Position numbers and translations under genes: made by a program. A stretch of 64,000 bases of DNA. Source: an uncultured Alphaproteobacteria bacterium. GTDB lineage: Bacteria > Pseudomonadota > Alphaproteobacteria > Rhizobiales > Hyphomicrobiaceae. The stretch covers positions 3,458 to 67,457 of the forward strand of contig CAVSZX010000029.1 in the NCBI GenBank assembly GCA_963732525.1, in the 5' to 3' direction. Every line of letters begins with the position of its first letter. Positions within the stretch are counted from its first letter, which is position 1. The notes beneath the pieces are model-generated. The model was not told where the DNA came from. It was given only the letters and a program-made list of their open reading frames with translations, and searched no databases. Of the stretch, positions 40,415 to 51,784 are shown in pieces.

Positions 40415-40575
40415 TGCCCTGGCCGCTCTTGTAGGGTGGTTTTGCAACCGGAGCCCGTCGTCATCCTGAGTGCCTTAGCTCGTCGTACGGGCATGGGCCC
40501 GGTTGCAAAGGTCTTTTTCCGGACAGTCGCACGGGACCCGCCGCCAAGGCACGATCCCGCATACAGGACAGGATC
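40415..40575 (+). ncRNA. IS110 bridge RNA (5' hairpin, target-binding loop, donor-binding loop); ends approximate
   Basis: Stem TTTGCAACCGG 40441-40451 / CCGGTTGCAAA 40499-40509 encloses CGTCATCC and ACGGG; second loop holds ACAGTCGC 40523-40530 and ATACAGG 40561-40567 around a CGGGA..TCCCG stem. Confidence 0.82.
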
Positions 40576-40580
40576 AAGCC

Positions 40581-41531
40581 ATGACACTCATCACCGCCGC
40601 CGGCATCGATGCCGGCAAAGCATTTCTCGACGTCGCCTTCGCACCCGGCACCACATCGTTCCGCGTTGACAACACGGCCGCCGGCATCAAGTTTATCCTG
40701 ACGCGTTTGAAGCGCGCCGGAATAACCCGCGTCGTTCTCGAGGCCATCGGAGGATATGCCCAACCGCTGGTGCGGGCACTCGCCGCTAAGGGCTTCAGCG
40801 TCGGCCTCGTCAACCCCCGCCGCATCAAGGCCTTCCGCGATGCCGAGGGGCGCCGCGCCAAGAACGACAGGCTGGACGCCGCCCTCATTGCGCGCTTTGC
40901 TCTCATCATGACCGATGCCATCAGACCACTGCCCTCCGAAGCCCAGCTCGCCGTCAAAGCCCTTGCACACCGGCGCAGACAGCTCGTCGACATGATCGCC
41001 ATGGAGAAGACGCGCCTCAAACAGGCGATCGATCCCGGCATCGTGCAAAGCCACCGCACAACCATAAAAAGTCTCTCGACCGAGCGCTGCGCCATCGAAG
41101 AAAAACTCGATGCCGCGCTGGCCCGCGATCCCGATGTGGCGCGCCGCCGCGAGATCCTCACGTCGATCCCCGGTATCGGCAGACAGGTCGCAACCGTACT
41201 CGCAACCGACATGCCGGAACTCGGCACCCTCGATCAAAAAGCCGCCGCAAGCCTCTCAGGCCTCGCCCCCCAAATCCACCAAAGCGGCATGACGCCAGGC
41301 CGCGCTCATATCGGCGGCGGACGGCCATGCGTGCGGGCCGCTCTTTACATGGCAGCTCTCTCAGCCGTGAGATCGAACACGCGCTTCAAGGCGATCTACA
41401 CCGACATGCGAACCAAGGGCAAACCCGCAAAAGTCGCGCTCGTCGCCGTCGCACGAAAACTCGTCACCGTCGCCAATGCACTCGTCAGAGCCAACGCCAC
41501 GTTCGAGAAAAATCACGTGGAACGCACTTGA
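40581..41531 (+). CDS. IS110 transposase / bridge recombinase (DEDD RuvC-like + Tnp), intact, 316 aa
   Basis: GIDAGK, VLEAIG, AKNDRLDA, SIPGIG, HQSG catalytic Ser, R.ALYMAA, ALVAVARKL. Confidence 0.96.
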   Translation: MTLITAAGIDAGKAFLDVAFAPGTTSFRVDNTAAGIKFILTRLKRAGITRVVLEAIGGYAQPLVRALAAKGFSVGLVNPRRIKAFRDAEGRRAKNDRLDAALIARFALIMTDAIRPLPSEAQLAVKALAHRRRQLVDMIAMEKTRLKQAIDPGIVQSHRTTIKSLSTERCAIEEKLDAALARDPDVARRREILTSIPGIGRQVATVLATDMPELGTLDQKAAASLSGLAPQIHQSGMTPGRAHIGGGRPCVRAALYMAALSAVRSNTRFKAIYTDMRTKGKPAKVALVAVARKLVTVANALVRANATFEKNHVERT

Positions 41532-42572: not shown

Positions 42573-42935
42573 TCAAGTTTTTCGGTTTGGACGCTTGCTC
42601 TTTTTGGGTTTGGCCTGAACCTTCTGGAGATAGGTATCGAGGCGGTCGAAGCGCTCCTCCCAAAGCCGCCGGTAGCGCTCGAGCCAGTCGTCGACGTCAC
42701 GCAGCGCCTGTGGTTTCAGCTTGCATGGCCGCCATTGCGCTTCGCGGCTGCGCGTGATGAGCCCGGCGCTTTCCAGCACCTTCAGGTGCTTTGAAATCGC
42801 CGGCAGCGAAATGTCGAAAGGCTCGGCGAGCTCCGTGACAGAGGTTTTCCCAAGGGCAAGTCGCGCCAGAATGGCGCGCCGGGTCGGATCGGCGAGGGCG
42901 GCAAAAGTATCGCTCAAGGTATCGGCGGTCGGCAT
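42573..42935 (-). CDS. ArsR/SmtB family transcriptional regulator
   Basis: FAALADPTRRAILARL, VTELAEPF..SLPAISKHLKVLE. Confidence 0.95.
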   Translation of the reverse strand: MPTADTLSDTFAALADPTRRAILARLALGKTSVTELAEPFDISLPAISKHLKVLESAGLITRSREAQWRPCKLKPQALRDVDDWLERYRRLWEERFDRLDTYLQKVQAKPKKSKRPNRKT

Positions 42936-42940
42936 GATAA

Positions 42941-42998
42941 TTATCCGATAGGTTAAATAGCTGATGGGTTAAATAAGGCATCGCCGGACAGATGTCAA
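42941..42998 (-). promoter_or_regulatory. Promoter with tandem operator for the arsR-SRPBCC operon
   Basis: Minus strand TTGACA-N17-TATTTA; GGTTAAATA repeated at 42951 and 42967; imperfect palindrome TTATCC-N4-GGTTAA. Confidence 0.65.
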
Positions 42999-43141
42999 CG
43001 AGTACCGCGATGCGAACCGCCAGAATACCTCAGGCGCATTGCCGGCGTGCGGACGCGCATCTAAACTGCATGCCAAGCCACGCTGCGCGCGAGCCGCAAT
43101 TCTCCACTCTGCAAAACATAAACGAGACAAGGGAGGCGTAC

Positions 43142-44677
43142 ATGTCGCTTTGGATCAGAACCGAGAAGTATCATCTGGGCCTGCAGGAAAAGAGTGAGGC
43201 GGCGGAAGCGGAGGCGTCATTGCCGGTGCCCTCGCAGGTGCTCTCCAACGGCGAATTCAATCCCTCGCCGCAAAACGACGTGCAGCGCAAGGTGAAGGCG
43301 GAAATACTCAGCGAGGCGGAAACGCTCGCCAAGCGCAACAACACCTCGCGCCGTGCCTTCCTCAGGTCGGCCGCCGGTTTCGCGCTGTCGTTCTCGGTGA
43401 TGAACAAGCACTACGGCAACGTTTTCGGCGCGACGAGCGCGGAAGCCGCCGACGTCGCCATGGCCGAGGAACGCGCCGCCGCCTTGCGCAATCAGTTCAT
43501 TTTCGATGACCAGCTGCACTTCGTCTACGAGGGTTTCAGCTTCGAGGGGCTGAAGGGTCTGCGCAAATACAGCATGGATAAATGGGTGCCGGAGAAATTC
43601 CGCGACAAGCAGACGGAGTTCGAGCAGCTGCAGTTCGCGAACTTCCTGAAGGAAGTCTATTTCGACAGCGATACCAAGGTCGGCATTCTATCTGGCGCGC
43701 CGGCCGACGATGCCGCCAACTGGTTCCTCACAAATAAGGAAATGTTCCGGGCGCAAAAAATTATGGACGAGCTTTGCGGCTCGCGGCGCATGTGGAGCCA
43801 GGCGATCGTTCGCCCGAATACGCCCGGGTGGCTCGAGGAGATGGACCGCTGCGCCGCCGAACAGAAGCCGATCTGCTGGAAGGGCTATACCGTCGGCGAT
43901 CCGCTTTCGAACTCGGATTTCCCCTATCGCCTCGATGATGAAAAGCTGATGTACCCGGCCTACGAAAAGATGGTGAAGTCGGGCATCACCAAATTCTGCA
44001 TCCACAAGGGGCTGCTGCCCAACGATTACGCCGACAGCTTCCACGCCTGGAAGCACGCCATGGTCGACGACATCGCCAAGGCGGCGAAGGACTTCCCCCA
44101 GATCTCCTTCATCATCTTCCATTCGGGATTGAAGCCGCTCAACGACTATCCGCAGGATCATCTCGACAAGTTCAACAAGACCGGGCGCATCGACTGGGTG
44201 AGCGATCTCGCCGAAATCCCGCAGGCGCACGGCGTCAAGAACGTCTACGCCGAACTCGGCAGCTGCTTTGCCAACTGTGTCGTCTCCCATCCCCAGCACG
44301 CGGCCGGACTGCTCGGTACGCTCATCAAGGGCATGGGCGCCGATCACGTCGTCTGGGGCACGGATTCTGTCTGGTACGGTTCGCCGCAATGGCAGATCGA
44401 AGCCTTGCGGCGCATGGAAATTCCGGAGGACATGCAGAAGAAGTTCGGTTTTGCCCCCTTGGGCGGCGACGACAGCGAGGTGAAGAGGCAGATCTTCGGC
44501 CTCAATACGGCGCGGATCCACGGCATCGATCCCGCGAACCTCGCGGCGCACGGCGTCAACCTGAAGGACGACAAGCTGCAGAAGGCCAAGGAAGCCTTCA
44601 TGAAAGAGGGGGGCGAACGCTCCAACGCCTTTTACGGCTTCATCGACAAAAAGGACATTTCGTTCAAGCGGAGCTAG
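43142..44677 (+). CDS. Amidohydrolase_2 family metallo-hydrolase
   Basis: GGAGG RBS; DDQLHF, WKGYT, CIHKG, IIFHSG, NVYAELG, VWGTDSVW.GSP. Confidence 0.88.
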   Translation: MSLWIRTEKYHLGLQEKSEAAEAEASLPVPSQVLSNGEFNPSPQNDVQRKVKAEILSEAETLAKRNNTSRRAFLRSAAGFALSFSVMNKHYGNVFGATSAEAADVAMAEERAAALRNQFIFDDQLHFVYEGFSFEGLKGLRKYSMDKWVPEKFRDKQTEFEQLQFANFLKEVYFDSDTKVGILSGAPADDAANWFLTNKEMFRAQKIMDELCGSRRMWSQAIVRPNTPGWLEEMDRCAAEQKPICWKGYTVGDPLSNSDFPYRLDDEKLMYPAYEKMVKSGITKFCIHKGLLPNDYADSFHAWKHAMVDDIAKAAKDFPQISFIIFHSGLKPLNDYPQDHLDKFNKTGRIDWVSDLAEIPQAHGVKNVYAELGSCFANCVVSHPQHAAGLLGTLIKGMGADHVVWGTDSVWYGSPQWQIEALRRMEIPEDMQKKFGFAPLGGDDSEVKRQIFGLNTARIHGIDPANLAAHGVNLKDDKLQKAKEAFMKEGGERSNAFYGFIDKKDISFKRS

Positions 44678-47600
44678 CAACCGGTCGCGATGCAATTGAT
44701 ACCGCAAGAGCCTCGGGACGATCGACTGGTCCCGAGGTGCGGAGGCGACTTCAAATGACTTAATCGCCGAGACACTAAACGCCGAGAGACTAATCACGGA
44801 GTGACCGGGCATAAACCGACAACCTCGTCGGAGCCCTTGTTTGGTGCCGCGCCGTGCTCACCGGCGGAGAAATGGCTTTCCAGCCGGAGGTCTGGGCGCG
44901 ATCCGGCACGGCCACGGCCTGCGCGGCACGAGCGGCACGTTGAGGCTGTCTCCAGCGTTTGCCGGTAGCATCGTTTCGGGCTTTGTTCGGGCCGGAAGAG
45001 ACGGCCGCTTGTTTGGCCGCGCGACGTTCGAGGCCGGAAAGCTCTTTGTCCGCCTCGTTGCGGAGCGAGCCATCGCGAGACAAATCAAGCCTCAAATCTT
45101 CGGCTTCCGACGCGGCGGATTTGGCCGTTCTTTCGACCGCTTGTAGTTCGGCGACGGCGCTTTCGGCTTGCTCGCGGAGATCGCGTTCGCGTGCGAGGTC
45201 CTGTTTCAATCTTTCAGTGTCCGAGGTCGCGGCGGCCTGAGTTTCACGCAAGCGACGGTCGAGATCCTGTACGGCGGTTGCGCCTGCGTCGTGGGCCGCG
45301 CGCATTTCAGCCAGCGCCAGATCGAACTCGGCCTTGGAGGATTCCGCCGCATTCAGCCGGGCTTCGAGATCGCGCATGGTTCTTGTGCTGGTGTCAGCCG
45401 CTGCCGATTGCGCCCAGTTCCAAGTTCGCTGCTCATCTGCCGGCGGCGACGGACCGGTATCCGAAGCCAGGAGCGCCGCCGTCGGCTCGCGCGTTTCGGT
45501 CGCGCGCTGGGCGGTCAACTCGGCAATCTTCGCGGCGTTGCTTTCGGCGCCGGCGTGTTCTGCCGTCAACCGCTCTTCCAGAGAGGCCACCTTTCCCTGA
45601 AGGGCCTCGAAGTCCGTGAGAGCGGCGAAAAGCGACGCCCGGGTTTGCTCCAGCTCGCCCCTGGCCTCCGCAGCCCTTGTCTCGGCAAGCGCCCGATCCC
45701 GGCGTTCGCGCGAGAGTTTGTGCCGTCCCGCCACCTGAAGCGCGAGCCTCGACTTGGGCAGGCTTGACGTTTCGGCGACGCGGGCCGCCGGGGCCGGGCG
45801 TTCCCGCCGCTCGACGCCGCCCGGCAACATGGACAGGCTGCGAATATGGTCCTTGTCCGGCATTGCCGAGACCACGCGGACACTGAAGCTCGCAGGTTCC
45901 AGGTTGGAGAGAAGCGATTTACCAATTCCCATGCCCGTCACGAAGACGACAATCGCGGCCGCCGCTTGCTGCGCGGCCCAAGGCAATGAATATCGCTTCG
46001 ACGAGAAATGTGTTCCGGGCGAGCGCCGTGCATCCGGACGCAGCGAACAATCCGGTTCCGAGGCGATTTCCCGGTGCGAAACGATGAGAAGCGGTTCGTC
46101 AACCAGAGTCTCGACGGATGATCTGAGACGCGGCCATGACGAGAATAGAACGTGCGAAGCGATCTCGACGTACGCGCCATCAGGGCTCGCGTGCCGCGAC
46201 AGCAAGCCTTCTGACAGCAATTCGATGGTGATTGCCTCCGCTCCAGCAAGGAGCGTGTACAATCTTATGAGGCGACGAACCGGACGCTTGTGCTGATCGA
46301 GCACCACCAACGCATCGCCCAACGCAGTGCGCCACGCAGCACTTTCCTGGGCGCTCGGCAGGGCGCGATCAAAGGCGGCGTCCGCGAAGCGAGCGATCAA
46401 CACATCGAGCGGATTGCCGCGCTCCGCCGTTTGCGTCCAGCTTGCATAGTCGGAAAGGCGAAGCAATTTGTCGTCTCCGCAGGCTTCGCACAGCTTGCGC
46501 AAGGCGAAGGAGAGGCGCGCGGGAGCCTCAGTCCGATCAAGGGTTCCGGCATCATAGAGGAGAGCTGCAACGAGACTGTCCTCGATTTCGTATTTCGCAG
46601 CCTGCAGGGGTTTACGGATGATATCTTCGAGCCCCGTTTCATCCATGGGGCAAACCGGAATGGCCTCGATGCCGGACTGTGCCAATTGGCGCCGTTGCAG
46701 CAATTCCAGTTCCGAAACGCTCATGGGCAGGAGGAACGTGATGGGTGCCATCGAATTGCCGGCAGCGCAAATGACACGTTCGAAGGCTTGGGCTTGCGCC
46801 TGCTCCGCCGAATAGAGGATGTCACCGATCTGATCGATGGCGACGACGATCCTGGCGTTGGCCCGCGAATGCCGCTTCGCAAGTTCCTGCGCAAACTGTT
46901 CCAGGAATAGCTTCAGGGATTCTTGCGAAGTCTCCCCGAGCGCGCTCAAGAAAGCTTCGCTATCGGCTTCGCGGCCAAGTGCGGCGCTGAGCGCGCATGC
47001 GAGGGACCGAAGCGGCGCCGCGCCGGGTCTCAATACCGGTACTACGATCGCGTCGTCGTGCATGTGGGGAAGGACGCCGGCCCGCATCAATGACGACAGG
47101 CCGCTACCGGCTGGACCGATGAGGGCGACCAAGGAACTTCCTCGAACTCGCCACAACATCTTGATGCGGCCGGCGATCCTTTGAATTTCGCGATCGCGGC
47201 CGAAAAAGACGGGAGCCCAATCCTCCGTGTAGGAGGAGAATCCGGGGTACGGTATCCGGCCTGCCGTCCAAGCCGCATCGGACGCGTGCGGCGGCAGACA
47301 TGCAGGAAGGGCCGCCGTCAGCTGGGCAATGTCTTCGCCATTCGGGTCAAGCGTGCGGACGCCGTCCAGAACACCATTCTCATCCTTGAAATCATCAAGG
47401 GGCACAGCAAAGGTGGCGAGGCCGCGCGCGCGGACGGCCGCGAATTCGTTCTGGCATCGCCGGCAGGCCAACCAGGCGCTGCTGCACAGGCAAACGGCAA
47501 GACGTGCGCTCGATAGACGATCTTCGAAAGTCTCGGTGGCGTCTTTGCTGTGGGATGTGCACGAGCTCGTCACGTCATGGCCCTTAAACTCGAACTCGCT

Positions 47601-48207
47601 CCGAAGTAGGAGCGCCGCCGTGGCATCGGCGTCGGAGTGGATGAGAAAAACGCGAACCATGACCACAACTTTCCTTTTCGGCGTTACGTGCGCTGCAATG
47701 GAATTTTGGGGCCCATAAATCTTAGCGACGAAAATGCCGGTGCATTTCCGAGATTTCGCCAATTGCAAAAAAAAAGCGCTGGAAGTCCCGCGAATAAAAC
47801 GTGCCAATAGAGAGCAATGGAGCAATATGGTTTGAATAAGGCACGGGTGGCGAATTTGCGGAGTTCCTTAATCGCGCGGATATGAGGTGTCATTCGCAAA
47901 TGACGTTCAATTAATCTCGGTAAGGGCCGTGACAGAGACGCCTGCCAATGCCCGCGCCTCGAAAAGCGGCGATAGAGTCTTGCAAATGAACGCGCTGGAT
48001 CACGCCGTGGGCTTCAGAGCCCCGTCGTCACAGGCCGCGGCGGAAGTTCATACCAGCTGCGGCACTTGCTTCTCGTGCCCGTCATCAAATTCGAAGGCAT
48101 GAACATCGTTCCGTATCGCATTCCCGAACGTTTTCCGACGGCGGATTATTGGGGCTGGCTCGTACCTACGTCAGCCTCACCGCCGACAAAGACATTTCGT
48201 TCAAGCG
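44654..48207. mobile_element. Integrase-less genomic islet bounded by a 17-bp direct repeat
   Basis: GACATTTCGTTCAAGCG at 44654-44670 and 48191-48207, each preceded by CGACAAA; interior looks more AT-rich than the flanks. Confidence 0.7.
44790..47660 (-). CDS. TIR domain + degenerate nSTAND1-like NTPase + TM + coiled-coil protein
   Basis: VFLIHS...S.AWL....CQNE (TIR); PYPGF.SY...FFGRDREI, GPAGSGLSSL.RAG, RPG..P, IDQIGD, HVLFSSWPRL (nSTAND1-like); hydrophobic helix; heptads. Confidence 0.8.
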   Translation of the reverse strand: MVRVFLIHSDADATAALLLRSEFEFKGHDVTSSCTSHSKDATETFEDRLSSARLAVCLCSSAWLACRRCQNEFAAVRARGLATFAVPLDDFKDENGVLDGVRTLDPNGEDIAQLTAALPACLPPHASDAAWTAGRIPYPGFSSYTEDWAPVFFGRDREIQRIAGRIKMLWRVRGSSLVALIGPAGSGLSSLMRAGVLPHMHDDAIVVPVLRPGAAPLRSLACALSAALGREADSEAFLSALGETSQESLKLFLEQFAQELAKRHSRANARIVVAIDQIGDILYSAEQAQAQAFERVICAAGNSMAPITFLLPMSVSELELLQRRQLAQSGIEAIPVCPMDETGLEDIIRKPLQAAKYEIEDSLVAALLYDAGTLDRTEAPARLSFALRKLCEACGDDKLLRLSDYASWTQTAERGNPLDVLIARFADAAFDRALPSAQESAAWRTALGDALVVLDQHKRPVRRLIRLYTLLAGAEAITIELLSEGLLSRHASPDGAYVEIASHVLFSSWPRLRSSVETLVDEPLLIVSHREIASEPDCSLRPDARRSPGTHFSSKRYSLPWAAQQAAAAIVVFVTGMGIGKSLLSNLEPASFSVRVVSAMPDKDHIRSLSMLPGGVERRERPAPAARVAETSSLPKSRLALQVAGRHKLSRERRDRALAETRAAEARGELEQTRASLFAALTDFEALQGKVASLEERLTAEHAGAESNAAKIAELTAQRATETREPTAALLASDTGPSPPADEQRTWNWAQSAAADTSTRTMRDLEARLNAAESSKAEFDLALAEMRAAHDAGATAVQDLDRRLRETQAAATSDTERLKQDLARERDLREQAESAVAELQAVERTAKSAASEAEDLRLDLSRDGSLRNEADKELSGLERRAAKQAAVSSGPNKARNDATGKRWRQPQRAARAAQAVAVPDRAQTSGWKAISPPVSTARHQTRAPTRLSVYARSLRD

Positions 48208-48228
48208 CAAGGCGTGAGGCGCGCAGCG

Positions 48229-49218
48229 TTATTCCGCCTTTTGCTTGGCGATGACGGCGAGAACGATGGGCAATGCCCATTTGCCGTCTCGGAACGCAGG
48301 CTGTAACAGCAGCTTCTCCTTGCCGTCGCCCGCGACTTCCATGCTGCCGCACATCCGGCGCTGGATCGCGCCGGTATCAATGCCCTGGCAGGCGACCAGT
48401 CCGCCATCGAGATTGAGCGCCGTTCTGAGATCGAGCGGAGCTTGTTTCAGAAATGCAGCAAGGGCCTTGAGCGTAAAAAAGGCGTCCTTGGTCGTGCCGA
48501 CTAAGATGCGGCCTGTCCGATCCTCTGCGACGAAGCTGCGGTTTGCGAGCCAGCCCTTGTCGGCGCCGACGCGGCTTTCACCATCGGCGCCGATCAGCAT
48601 TGGATAGGAGACCATGGCGTTTCTTGCACCCGCCAGCGCCTCACGCCACGGCTGGCGGCTGAGATCGGCGACGCCCGTGTGCGTTTCACGCGCGATGAAA
48701 ACGCCATGCTGAGCCTCGTATTGCGCCGGCCCGAGAAGCTGGCCGTCGCTGACAAGGGGCGTGTCGGGCCGTCCGTCCGCGGCGAAGTAGCTGCCGTTGA
48801 TCACGACCGACGCCTTTGTTTCCCGCATCCAATCTTCGAGCAGAAGCCCGGACGGTCGGTTCAGGACCTCGAAGCGGTATGCATTGGGGTCGATCCGGGC
48901 CAACATGATGCGGTCGACTTCAACACCGTTGGCAAGTGCCGGCAGTTCGCCGACCTCCAGTCCGGGCGCAGCCAGGCTCCAGCTCATGGCGCCGGGCGTG
49001 GCGTTGAGGTTGGGCTCTGCAAGGGCCAGTCGTACGGAGGGGCTGAGACGGGACTGGGCTTGCTCGACCGGCACCCAGACGCTGGCGCCACGCAGGAGGA
49101 GGACGTGCAGGCCGTACGTTCCCGAGTTGGCATATAGGAGCGCCGTCGCGAACGAGAGAAAAATGAAGATGAGTGCTGCGGCGGCCTTTGCTTCTCGGGA
49201 TATGGAATTTTGTCTCAT
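48229..49218 (-). CDS. Phosphodiester glycosidase (NAGPA/DUF2233) family protein
   Basis: N-terminal TM, VINGSYF, NRSFVA, ALNLDGG. Confidence 0.82.
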   Translation of the reverse strand: MRQNSISREAKAAAALIFIFLSFATALLYANSGTYGLHVLLLRGASVWVPVEQAQSRLSPSVRLALAEPNLNATPGAMSWSLAAPGLEVGELPALANGVEVDRIMLARIDPNAYRFEVLNRPSGLLLEDWMRETKASVVINGSYFAADGRPDTPLVSDGQLLGPAQYEAQHGVFIARETHTGVADLSRQPWREALAGARNAMVSYPMLIGADGESRVGADKGWLANRSFVAEDRTGRILVGTTKDAFFTLKALAAFLKQAPLDLRTALNLDGGLVACQGIDTGAIQRRMCGSMEVAGDGKEKLLLQPAFRDGKWALPIVLAVIAKQKAE

Positions 49219-49413
49219 GTGGCGTATGCCTTGATTGTTCGGTGAGCTGCTTCGGGCTGACGCTGACGCCATTCGGCACCCCGCACTACTGGAAATCCCG
49301 GCAATGTTCGGCAATCGATGCCGTTGCGGCGCGGATGCGGCCTTGCCCATTGCTGGCGAGTGCGGATAATTCCGGTTGCCTAAGGATTTTCAGCAAGGAC
49401 CAGAACCCAGACC

Positions 49414-50170
49414 ATGACGACACGGCTCCTCACCAAGACCGAGAACGAGCACGTTCTGGCCGTGCTGCAAGACGAATTGGCGCGGCGGCGTATATCACGG
49501 CAGCGTCTCGCGGACGACGCGCGCATTTCGCTCTCGACGCTGGAGAAGGCGTTGTCCGGCAGCAGACCCTTTACGCGCACGACGGTGGTACGGATCGAAA
49601 CGGCGCTGGGACTTGCGTTGCGGCCTCGCGCCGAGGCGCGACGTGCGAGCGATGTGACTACGGCGGCGCCGGCAAATCTCGGCGCCTACACGCGGGCGGG
49701 TGTCAAGTGGATCGAGGGTGACTATGTTGCCCTTCGCCCCTCGTTCAGCGATGCGCGCGCCGTCTATGCCTACAAAATCACGATCTTTTGGGACGACGCT
49801 GCGAGCCGGTTGCTGTTTGAGGAGTCGGGCCGGGTCGATGCCGCGTTCGCGCAATCGGGTGAAGTCTCGGTGCCGCATCAGTCTGGGCACGTCTATCTCG
49901 TCACCAACGATCAAGGACAATTCCGGCTGATGACTTCTGTCGCGGCCGACCATCAGCAAGGTGATGTACGGCGTCCTATCGACGCTTCAATCCGGCAAGG
50001 GGGCGCAATTATCGCCGCTCGCGGCACCTGTTGCGCTGGTGCCGGTTAGCAGTGTGGCGCGCGTCGAACTCGGTAAGATCGAAGTCGGGCATGCGGTCTA
50101 CGGCCAATATCGCAAGCATCTGGCGAAGGCGACCGACGACGGATATGCGCTGCTGCTCGCGGGCGGCTGA
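49414..50170 (+). CDS. XRE-family HTH transcriptional regulator; apparent frameshift near 49935
   Basis: ISRQRLADDARISLSTLEKALSG HTH; C-terminal beta-rich domain; divergent from the glycosidase gene. Confidence 0.82.
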
Positions 50171-50221
50171 AGGGCCCTGTGACGACGCAGTGGCGGGCGC
50201 GAACAGCGCTCCTGTTACGTG

Positions 50222-51784
50222 TTACGTGCTCGGGCAGAACTTCTTGGCCTCGGCCAGCGCCTCGTCCTTGCTGGCGTAGGTGCCGACGAGTTCGAAGCCG
50301 GCGGGGGCCGACTTGGAATAGGTGTCGAGCATGGATTTCTCGAAGCCGTCGAGAACGGTGAGGAGGGTGAGCTGAACTTCGCCGCCCTTGTTGGTGCGCA
50401 CGAGCAGCGTCTTCTTGCCGCCGTAGCTGGCGCTCAGCAGCCGGCAGGCGCCGCTTGCATTGGAGCCGGCGGCTGCATCGGCGACTGCGGCAACGTGCAC
50501 GGGCTGAACGGCCGCCGCTGCGACGGCCGGTTGGCCAGCTTCGACTAGAGCCGACATCGTACGGGGCCGCCGAGGTGCGAGGGCGCAGGTTGCGCAAATT
50601 CATGGCGCGCCGGGGTGATGCGGAAGTGCGGCATGGGCGCCGGCTCGGCATTGCTCGTCTCGACGGGCTGCGGCGCCGGGGCGGCTGCGGTATCCGCGGC
50701 GGGCGCGGGCTGCGGTTGCGGTGCTGCCGCTGCAGGGACGACCGGCGGCTCGATCAGGACATGTTGATCGCTTCTCGGGGCTGCTTTTGCGGTCGCTGCA
50801 TGTCCCTCATGTCCCTGCGGCGGGCGCCGGCTTTTGAGCCTGTGCCGGCTCGGCAGGACGCGGATCGCCTTCCTTCGGCTTGGTGCGCGACCATAAGGTC
50901 CTGACGGGCGACGAGGGCGCGGCACGGCGGGGCTGCTCGGGCGCCGACTTCTTTGCCGGAGGGGTCGCGAGGTCCTTTTCGGAAAGCGTATCGTCGGCCG
51001 CGACAGGGCCGCCGTCCGTCCAAGGCAGGGCCTCGGGACCGGCGAGGCCTTGGGGCTTGGGGCCGCCGAGACCGGCAGGCTGCACCAGCGCCCGGCCCGG
51101 ACGCTTGGCGGGCTGCGGCACTGGAACGTTGTCGGCGGTCGCCGGGCCCTTGCAATGCGAGGTGCGGAATTCGCTGGCGATGAAATCGATCGACTTGGCG
51201 TACTGGCGGTCGGCGGCCCAGCGGCGGGCGAGATCGCCGAAGGTCACGGGCCGGCCGAGGCGGCGCGACTTGGAGATGATGTCGTCCTGGTTTTCGTTGG
51301 TGCGGCGCGCCACGGGGTCGGCAACGTGCTCGCCCGAATAGGCGACGAGGTGCTGCATCTGCGCGTGCACACCGGTCTTGACGTCCTGGAAACGCTCGCC
51401 CGCGACGCCGCCGCCGGTGGCGCCGATGCCGGCGAAGTTGTTCTGCTTTTCATGCACGTCGCCGCGCCGGCCGTCACCGCGCCGGTATTTGAGATAGTTG
51501 GTTTCGATCGCCATCTGGAAGAAGGCGTAGTCCCAACGCACGTGCCAGGCTTCGCCCCAATATTTGTACCAGCGGGCGATGTCGCGGTACTTGGGATCGA
51601 CGTTCGGGTTGCGCGTCTTGAGGAAGTCCATCAGCCTCTGCGGCGACACGCAGACGGGAACGCGGTTAGCCTCGCCGGTGCGGATGGGCGGGGCCGCGTA
51701 AACCGCGGTCGAGGCCATCAGCCAGGCGGCGAGAGCGGCCGTGATGGCCGGCCTCATCGCCCGTTTGTGCGCAGAACCAGTCAT
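50222..51784 (-). CDS. Secreted glucosaminidase (GH73-like) domain protein, paralog 2; apparent frameshifts in the linker
   Basis: Signal peptide; WDYAFFQMAIETNYL, QNNFAGIGATG, F.DV.TGV.A..QHL..Y, RWA.D..Y. Confidence 0.8.

Follow-up and report, generated by a model that had tools for sequence, protein, structure and literature searches.

Introduction

Receptors of the STAND/NLR type are textbook ATP switches. The described proteins closest to the one treated here are those of the TIR-nSTAND1 type (PF20703; nSTAND1 was named in Kaur et al., 2021, PMC8195603), which carry, in this order, a TIR domain, the nSTAND1 module, in many cases a membrane helix and a variable C-terminus of WD40 repeats, TPR repeats or an FGE domain. 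Avs/AVAST and bacterial NACHT proteins have the same succession of effector, STAND module and sensor, KpAvs8 being listed with degenerate Walker motifs among the sensing Avs proteins (PMC13581612), and membrane helices are noted in STAND sensors (PMC10907252; bioRxiv 2022.07.19.500537), including some bacterial NACHT proteins (bioRxiv 2022.07.19.500537). Inactive STANDs are known as well, namely iSTAND and iSTAND2, which belong to MoxR-vWA ternary systems, and one member of a two-gene STAND operon (PMC7159879; PMC8195603). In this work we analyze a 64,000-nucleotide stretch of DNA (the window) from an uncultured alphaproteobacterium of the Hyphomicrobiaceae (GCA_963732525.1, contig CAVSZX010000029.1) and, within it, the gene P0001 (44790..47660, minus strand), which is covered by contigs from public sequencing runs (run contigs) and encodes, in one open reading frame (ORF), a TIR domain, a pseudo-nSTAND1 module, a predicted membrane helix and a coiled coil.

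Our preferred reading, held tentatively and with slightly less than even confidence, is that P0001 is an intact TIR-nSTAND1 gene whose ATP-binding residues are gone and whose product is likely a single-pass inner-membrane receptor, the TIR domains being clustered by the helix and a periplasmic coiled coil rather than by ATP. The part of this reading that can be shown rests on the intact frame, the domain order, the concerted loss of residues, the single branch formed by relatives lacking the Walker A Lys (Lys-less proteins), purifying selection on that lineage and a module common to P0210, a glyoxalase-domain protein.

Set beside the TIR-nSTAND1 proteins, P0001 keeps the order of TIR, nSTAND1, membrane helix and variable C-terminus, but it has lost the Walker A Lys, the Walker B acids, R314, P381 and H502, is without the domain behind the winged helix, has a coiled coil in place of the repeats or FGE domain and has an eroded TIR pocket. 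With iSTAND and iSTAND2 it shares a catalytically eroded STAND, sometimes combined in iSTAND with an N-terminal TIR (PMC8195603), whereas P0001 is a stand-alone nSTAND1 offshoot with membrane helix and outer module in the same chain. Unlike Avs and bacterial NACHT proteins it has neither a TPR-like cytoplasmic sensor nor a PADLOC match, and its predicted sensor lies across the membrane; the Walker A Lys that bNACHT01 needs is lost (bioRxiv 2022.07.19.500537). Glyoxalase (VOC)–helix–coiled-coil proteins, represented by P0210, have a homologous helix, post-helix segment and coil repeat, but their cytoplasmic part is a glyoxalase domain and not TIR-STAND. Toll-like receptors provide an analogy in their outer sensor, one membrane helix and cytoplasmic TIR switched on by clustering; P0001 is not a member, its chain runs in the opposite direction, a STAND remnant stands between TIR and membrane and there are no leucine-rich repeats. 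At most, P0001 may work like a TIR receptor.

The literature searched, which left out most subscription papers, gave no account of a Lys-less TIR-nSTAND1 membrane lineage. Seven supplementary files of PMC13581612 contain none of three homologue accessions and no term nSTAND1, and the full clade table probably lies outside them. The TIR-nSTAND1 family is large, barely studied and mostly predicted to span the membrane. In its Lys-less lineage the ATP switch appears to have been dismantled in steps, with the fold, the TIR and the membrane helix kept by selection. Matched Lys-bearing and Lys-less relatives would allow a direct test of what a STAND does without nucleotide, and of whether a TIR receptor lets bacteria perceive phage or damage from across the inner membrane. 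Should the TIR be dead or the P0001 copy decaying, its value would be that of an evolutionary case study.

A STAND fold without its nucleotide contacts

The nSTAND1 module spans residues 137-518 (46107..47252, minus strand) and consists of a nucleotide-binding domain, a helical domain and a winged helix. It matches the nSTAND1 profile of Pfam (PF20703) with E 1.3e-43 and 150.6 bits against a cut-off of 27.1, over profile positions 1-353 of 379. Residues 1-525 are modeled as TIR plus STAND with a predicted local distance difference test (pLDDT) score of 91.6, on an alignment rich in Lys-bearing relatives, and the STAND part matches the folds of ORC2, NRC2, NLRP3 and Apaf-1 (Z 13.4-16.4 over 258-313 residues). 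A sequence search found no solved nSTAND1 structure.

The Walker A motif reads GPAGSGLSS (residues 182-190; 47091..47117, minus strand), with Lys188 changed to Leu through a CTG codon, and the same motif stands in the homologues P0002 and P0070; the Walker B region (46821..46847, minus strand) ends in DQIGD (residues 276-280) where the family has DQxEE, as it also does in P0002. Both changes had been picked out in an earlier note made from the letters of the window, and codon 188 and residues 276-280 confirm them. P0001 thus departs from the Walker A consensus GxxGxGK[ST], the Lys of which is present in 139 of the 150 best matches of the lineage profile described below. At E279, E280, R314, P381 and H502, where the family is conserved at 98-100%, P0001 has G, D, S, A and S; compared with 140 Lys-bearing rows, K188 and all of these are lost and the scaffold residues are retained. 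We take R314, P381 and H502 to be the sensor-1, GxP-like and MHD-like residues. By profile and fold P0001 is an nSTAND1 member, but judged by its residues (Walker A, Walker B acids, Arg314, Pro381, His502) it is not an active STAND. The same half of the protein is the best conserved, at 59% identity against 42% for the coil, and identity between P0001 and P0002 climbs with family conservation, from 39 through 48 and 60 to 70% from variable to conserved sites.

A Pfam scan of P0001 to E 0.1 lists nSTAND1, TIR_2, AAA_22 and CtIP_N only, which bears out the earlier observation that the usual WD40 or TPR repeats are absent. Membership of iSTAND was rejected because P0001, although by sequence it shares an inactive STAND, has no MoxR/vWA partner genes among its neighbors in the window, and membership of Avs because 0 PADLOC families and no WD40, TPR or FGE family match, with long helices in their place.

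The ORF encodes 956 aa from an ATG at 47660. A run contig of 4137 nt covers 45475-49611 and differs in a single letter within that span (47587, Phe25 to Ser), a variant read in four of four public runs; these runs belong to one study, and the source sample may be among them. The run contigs list no indels within the ORF, and a tblastn comparison with four homologues gave no sign of compensated frameshifts. It is practically negligible that the dead motifs are sequencing or assembly errors: the run contigs do correct single-base insertions in neighboring genes and one base in P0001 itself, but both motifs are unchanged in the run contig, with Walker A covered by two runs, and both recur in independent homologues. 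We therefore reject read error, which the earlier note had also judged unlikely for the Leu codon of Walker A. In eight public runs no contig joins across the whole insert in which the gene lies, the contigs showing presence only; four runs with a small share hold short pieces of the region, and no RNA dataset is listed among the public runs that hold it.

A Lys-less branch under purifying selection

The full-length homologue P0002 (967 aa) is 46% identical to P0001 over 98% of its length and has both dead motifs in common with it. P0003 (720 aa) lacks the N-terminal 320 residues, and P0070 (253 aa, with the Walker A motif of P0001) consists of an N-terminus alone. Because they come from contigs of identical length (85,131 nt) and cover non-overlapping parts, they are probably one gene split by a true frameshift or an assembly error. 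No close orthologue of P0001 was found in the 400 family and 400 order genomes searched, and scans of metagenome contigs found no DNA of close homologues. All 29 other family loci read keep the Walker A Lys. Many family genomes carry intact TIR-nSTAND1 genes of ~960 aa (L058-L086), four of them with a helix and a C-terminus that, judged by its motif, is FGE-like.

A profile of three Lys-less N-termini, a query that enriches for Lys-less proteins, matched 42,409 proteins at E<=0.001, and among its best 150 matches the Walker A Lys is present in 139 and missing in 11. Further Lys-less genes came from genome searches and belong to three other families of the order (one each in G045, G517, G475 and G459, three in G456), the genus of G459 and the family of G456 being represented by one genome each. 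The 11 Lys-less rows form one branch among 151 rows (FastTree 0.93), as do 13 Lys-less rows set among 45 chosen Lys-bearing rows with the seven trait columns dropped (94 in the Shimodaira-Hasegawa-like approximate likelihood ratio test, SH-aLRT); with P0004, a long row, removed and a mixture model applied, support is 97/88 and the branch appears in 96% of 200 bootstrap trees. The branch that leads to the three close sequences has a length of 1.7, and long-branch attraction may play some part.

Along this branch the losses are nested. Lys188 is missing in all 11 proteins, Pro381 and His502 in P0001, P0002 and three sister proteins, Arg314 in the same proteins and one or two others, and the Walker B acids in P0001 and P0002 only. 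An independent trait supports the same grouping: a profile of the helical domain that follows the winged helix, trained on 65 Lys-bearing proteins after 10 of 154 rows lacking the anchor motif had been dropped, gives >20 bits for 62 of 64 held-out Lys-bearing proteins but for none of 14 Lys-less ones. Read from the alignment, this pattern shows a stepwise loss in which the Lys and the post-winged-helix domain would have gone first, the other nucleotide contacts next and the Walker B acids last. Lys-less genes for which DNA is available form 35 pairs, and in every one the proportion of synonymous differences (pS 0.69-0.91) exceeds that of nonsynonymous differences (pN 0.21-0.55); the closest Lys-less paralogues have a synonymous rate (dS) of 2.75 and a nonsynonymous rate (dN) of 0.24, and most dS values are saturated. 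Such codon comparisons show purifying selection on the lineage as a whole and apply to it, not to P0001's own branch.

The earlier note had weighed a conserved pseudo-ATPase against a decaying gene and had named intact Walker motifs in the homologues as what would speak against the former. The closest homologues instead share the dead motifs, the Lys-less proteins are one branch and the lineage is under purifying selection, so that the conserved pseudo-ATPase is supported and decay of a lone gene is not. A lone pseudogene was likewise rejected on the 46%-identical, full-length P0002 with the same motifs and on the Lys-less branch.

A variable module behind the predicted membrane helix

Behind the STAND module a single membrane helix is predicted at residues 566-584 (45909..45965, minus strand; Kyte-Doolittle 1.82), with a G-x-x-x-G/A pattern kept in homologues. 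It is followed by a long helical, predicted coiled-coil region at residues 636-885 (45006..45755, minus strand), for which AlphaFold models long helices at 636-732 and 740-885 and which holds a heptad-period (3.5) signal within residues 640-885. The earlier description of one hydrophobic helix and about 250 aa of coiled coil is thereby confirmed. As a novelty of P0001 the membrane helix was rejected: a helix with hydropathy >=1.6 after the STAND module is a family trait, present in 108 of 129 Lys-bearing proteins and in 13 of 14 that lack the Lys. Basic residues are more numerous before than after the helix in 13 of 14 Lys-less proteins.

What follows the helix varies across the family, with WD40, TPR, FGE, caspase-like and other modules among 44 proteins scanned and WD40 in the three sisters of P0001. 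Because a linker motif directly behind the winged helix is common to P0001 and these WD40 sisters, the swap point likely lies at ~532-556. In P0210 a glyoxalase domain precedes the same helix, post-helix segment and coil. Its non-coil part is 47% identical to P0003 over 79 aa (E 1.4e-10) and 37% identical to P0002 over 75 aa, the match to P0001 being weak (E 0.09), and its coil repeats a 35-aa unit five times in tandem with little difference between the copies. Since the module is common to this glyoxalase-domain protein, the helix and coiled coil were probably borrowed from such a protein, the direction of transfer, from host gene to STAND, being inferred. In the genus, glyoxalase-helix-coil proteins are represented by five long frames among matches in 9 of 63 genomes, with a weak likeness of the coil to P0001; L132, L138 and L140 combine in a single chain the glyoxalase domain, a linker, the membrane helix and a coiled coil of great length. 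A complex prediction for two copies of residues 556-890 scored 0.00, which has no bearing either way, and the ESM Atlas gave no usable match for residues 520-956.

A TIR domain with an eroded pocket

The TIR domain (residues 1-122; 47295..47660, minus strand) is recognized by Pfam, by family comparison and by fold matches at Z 13.1-13.5 that include MyD88, TRR-2 and SARM1, although the TIR_2 match at residues 4-78 (E 4.3e-5, 24.4 bits) lies below the cut-off of 28. F5, D12, W63, C69 and E72 are retained, and C69 and E72 are present in all 11 Lys-less rows. The retained Glu of the C..E motif, which the earlier note had stressed, is therefore real, but the pocket is more eroded than it suggests. 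Arg stands at position 68 in P0001, P0002 and P0070, whereas the basal Lys-less proteins retain S7, W41 and W68.

Cyclising TIRs all have an aromatic residue at the WxxxE Trp position, and this Trp is needed for cyclisation and less conserved among hydrolysing or inactive TIRs (bioRxiv 2022.05.07.491051). A cyclic messenger from the P0001 TIR appears unlikely because the WxxxE Trp is missing, and NADase activity is doubtful because both this Trp and the BB-loop consensus are lost; judged by its residues, the domain is compatible with a plain NADase and with no activity.

Proposed mechanism and alternative explanations

In the receptor that we favor, the TIR and pseudo-STAND would be cytoplasmic and the coiled coil periplasmic, and the pseudo-STAND would now serve as a rigid spacer or as a surface for assembly. 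A cue from the envelope (phage entry or wall damage, for example) would alter the packing of the helices and bring the TIRs together; the output would be plain NAD+ cleavage to ADP-ribose, with no cyclic messenger as the WxxxE Trp is missing, and the outcome growth arrest or death. A bolder version, which we consider possible but somewhat unlikely in its entirety, holds that an NLR-like STAND lineage of the Alphaproteobacteria shed its ATP switch stepwise to become Toll-like single-pass receptors, whose exchangeable periplasmic modules (WD40 propeller, coiled coil and others) read the envelope and cluster the TIRs without nucleotide exchange; P0001 would be its most derived member, with an outer module from a host glyoxalase-domain protein.

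Besides the dead motifs and the branch described above, the receptor is favored by the helix and the surplus of basic residues ahead of it in 13 of 14 Lys-less proteins, by the WD40 propellers that the sisters carry behind it, by the presence of C69 and E72 in all 11 Lys-less rows, by the degenerate motifs of the sensing protein KpAvs8 and by a restriction-modification cassette at the same site in G010. Several observations weigh against it. One of the three close genes appears split (P0070/P0003). In the TIR of P0001, S7 is changed to Ile and the WxxxE Trp68 to Arg, and S7, W68 and the BB-loop consensus (F32, G38, W41, E42) are lost in all three close sequences; non-enzymatic TIRs, moreover, also keep the Glu. 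AbTir needs an intact BB loop and is less active when the Trp is lost (bioRxiv 2022.05.07.491051), and defense by bNACHT01 requires the Walker A Lys (bioRxiv 2022.07.19.500537). The membrane helix of P0001, with a summed insertion score of 3.1 where the two homologues have -1.0 and -0.1, is marginal and the weakest of the three, and the coiled coil contains prolines at 726, 737, 739 and 740. The outer half also seems to evolve faster in P0001, with 64 private changes against 27 in P0002 (P 1.3e-4) and 85 against 26 in P0003, in rate tests that treat P0210 as outgroup by assumption. As to defense, no PADLOC family matches P0001 at E<=0.1 (2023 library). The neighborhood, proposed earlier as a check, provided no such link beside the Lys-less relatives: none of the 63 neighbors of seven Lys-less genes belongs to a defense family named by Pfam, and PADLOC, applied to 18 of these neighbors, matched only a helicase and an OmpA-type protein. 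That P0001 is an envelope-sensing immune receptor is accordingly put forward as a hypothesis.

The lost TIR pocket residues and BB loop of the three close sequences would equally suit a domesticated, non-enzymatic membrane scaffold or adaptor, in which ATPase and TIR enzyme are both dead and the periplasmic coil carries an exchangeable cytoplasmic interaction module, as in the glyoxalase-domain counterpart, outside phage defense. P0210, with the same helix and coil behind its glyoxalase domain, the similar proteins of the genus and the position of Lys-less relatives among housekeeping, TRAP-transporter and PP2C/FHA genes all speak for it. We nevertheless regard it as unlikely, though deserving serious weight: the gene is rare and patchy, with no close orthologue in the 400 family and 400 order genomes searched, and lies in an insert, which fits accessory cargo better, and C69 and E72 are kept in all 11 rows. 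Quite unlikely, in our estimate, is a functional lineage in which the P0001 copy itself has entered early decay, selection having relaxed since insertion, mostly on the outer half, with the frame unbroken so far. The faster outer half, the weak helix, the prolines of the coil, the apparently split close gene and a low GC content at third codon positions (GC3; 0.69, against 0.74-0.84 in five host genes) would all follow from it. Yet the N-terminal 520 aa show no excess change in any of nine relative-rate tests (P 0.10-1.0), the frame is open, free of compensating frameshifts and the same in the run contigs, and in simulations of neutral drift only 4 of 300 frames were still open at 90% identity and none of 300 at 80%; the excess in the outer half itself depends on the assumed outgroup, and sensor regions also diversify under selection.

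Finally, the sensor might be the inactive STAND itself, which would bind the nucleic acid of an invader within the cytoplasm, as has been suggested for iSTAND; helix and coil would then only anchor it near the point of DNA entry. A role of inactive STANDs as receptors of nucleic acid is proposed by Kaur et al. (PMC8195603), the best fold matches include the DNA-binding ORC/Cdc6 proteins, and the STAND half is the best-conserved part. The likeness to ORC/Cdc6, however, is common to all STANDs and does not stand out over the NLR matches (Z 16.4 vs 14.9), the variable part of the lineage (WD40, coil, other) lies behind the membrane helix, as expected of a sensor, and there are no MoxR-vWA partners; we consider this explanation very improbable.

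The insert and its surroundings

P0001 lies in an insert of 3537 nt (~3.5 kb) bounded by a 17-nt direct repeat. The left copy (44654..44670, plus strand) is within the 3' end of an Amidohydrolase_2 gene (43142..44677, plus strand; identified by Pfam and genus comparison), the insertion target, and the right copy (48191..48207, plus strand) is the displaced 3' end of that gene. The repeat is exact and occurs in two copies only in the 3.1-Mb assembly, allowing <=1 mismatch; among 5000 random sites 61 carry a repeat of at least 17 nt, real repeats included. Because the right copy, in frame, encodes the amidohydrolase C-terminus found in the relative G074, the insert fits integration into the 3' end of this gene, and a direct repeat at the 3' end of a target gene is what is expected of integrative elements. 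The amidohydrolase is present in 13 of 63 other genomes of the genus, and its 3' flank (0.4-1.5 kb), read in 12 of the 13, has in no case a match to the insert or to the next gene. No other ORF of at least 80 aa with a family, and hence no integrase, was found in the insert; the six PF00589 matches of the assembly, which is 65% complete, are all on other contigs. We infer that P0001 reached the site as mobile cargo.

Beyond the right repeat, at 48229-50049, are a gene for a phosphodiester glycosidase of the NAGPA family and a helix-turn-helix (HTH) gene. These two genes are also extra, since all three syntenic relatives (G017, G019, G036) join the amidohydrolase straight to the genes at ~50.2-51.7 kb. 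The earlier description of P0001 as sole cargo thus holds for the repeat-bounded 3537 nt and not for the wider site. In G010, genes for Vsr, a cytosine methylase (in two frames) and a type II endonuclease lie directly behind the same amidohydrolase gene (L053:13079-15708), with no repeat around this restriction-modification cassette; on this single case the site may attract defense cargo. The run contigs lack one base at each of window positions 49935, 50543, 50559 and 50818, and assembly errors have therefore probably shifted the frame of the HTH gene at 49414 and of the genes at 50.2-52.1 kb. An IS110-family transposase gene lies at 40503-41531, 3 kb from the insert.

Around P0001 itself, promoter and terminator scans stayed at chance level, and Rfam gave 0 matches at E<=0.1 in 42900-50300. 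PHROGs gave one weak match, to an entry of unknown function, and plasmid records held distant relatives only (24 records <60% identity).

Neighbors of other Lys-less and TIR genes

Among the 63 neighbors of the seven Lys-less genes, Pfam names housekeeping, transport and signaling genes. Three of the seven are preceded by a gene for a TRAP solute-binding protein (DctP) in the same orientation (L117:13685-14938, L118:11483-12748, L121:1-531), a count that covers Lys-less genes only; PP2C and FHA genes lie upstream of one, and RNase D and aspS beside two. Neither MoxR-vWA genes nor an active STAND partner were found among these neighbors or those in the window, two of the Lys-less contigs being short and one vWA gene, the Ro60 of an RNA-repair operon, lying near one copy. 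That operon, in G456 (L119:400-7691), is a cluster of RtcR, Ro60, RtcA and a kinase-phosphatase-ligase gene directly upstream of a Lys-less paralogue.

Two further TIR loci were seen in the host assembly (G000). On C23, at ~64300-66170 (L126:173-2031), a reverse transcriptase frame is followed by a TIR frame in another frame, likely one fusion split by an assembly frameshift and presumably of the retron type. On C5, at ~86070-89365 (L125), two similar tandem genes have pentapeptide-like repeats, followed in the first, as in a receptor, by a hydrophobic stretch and a terminal TIR_2 domain (E 4e-19).

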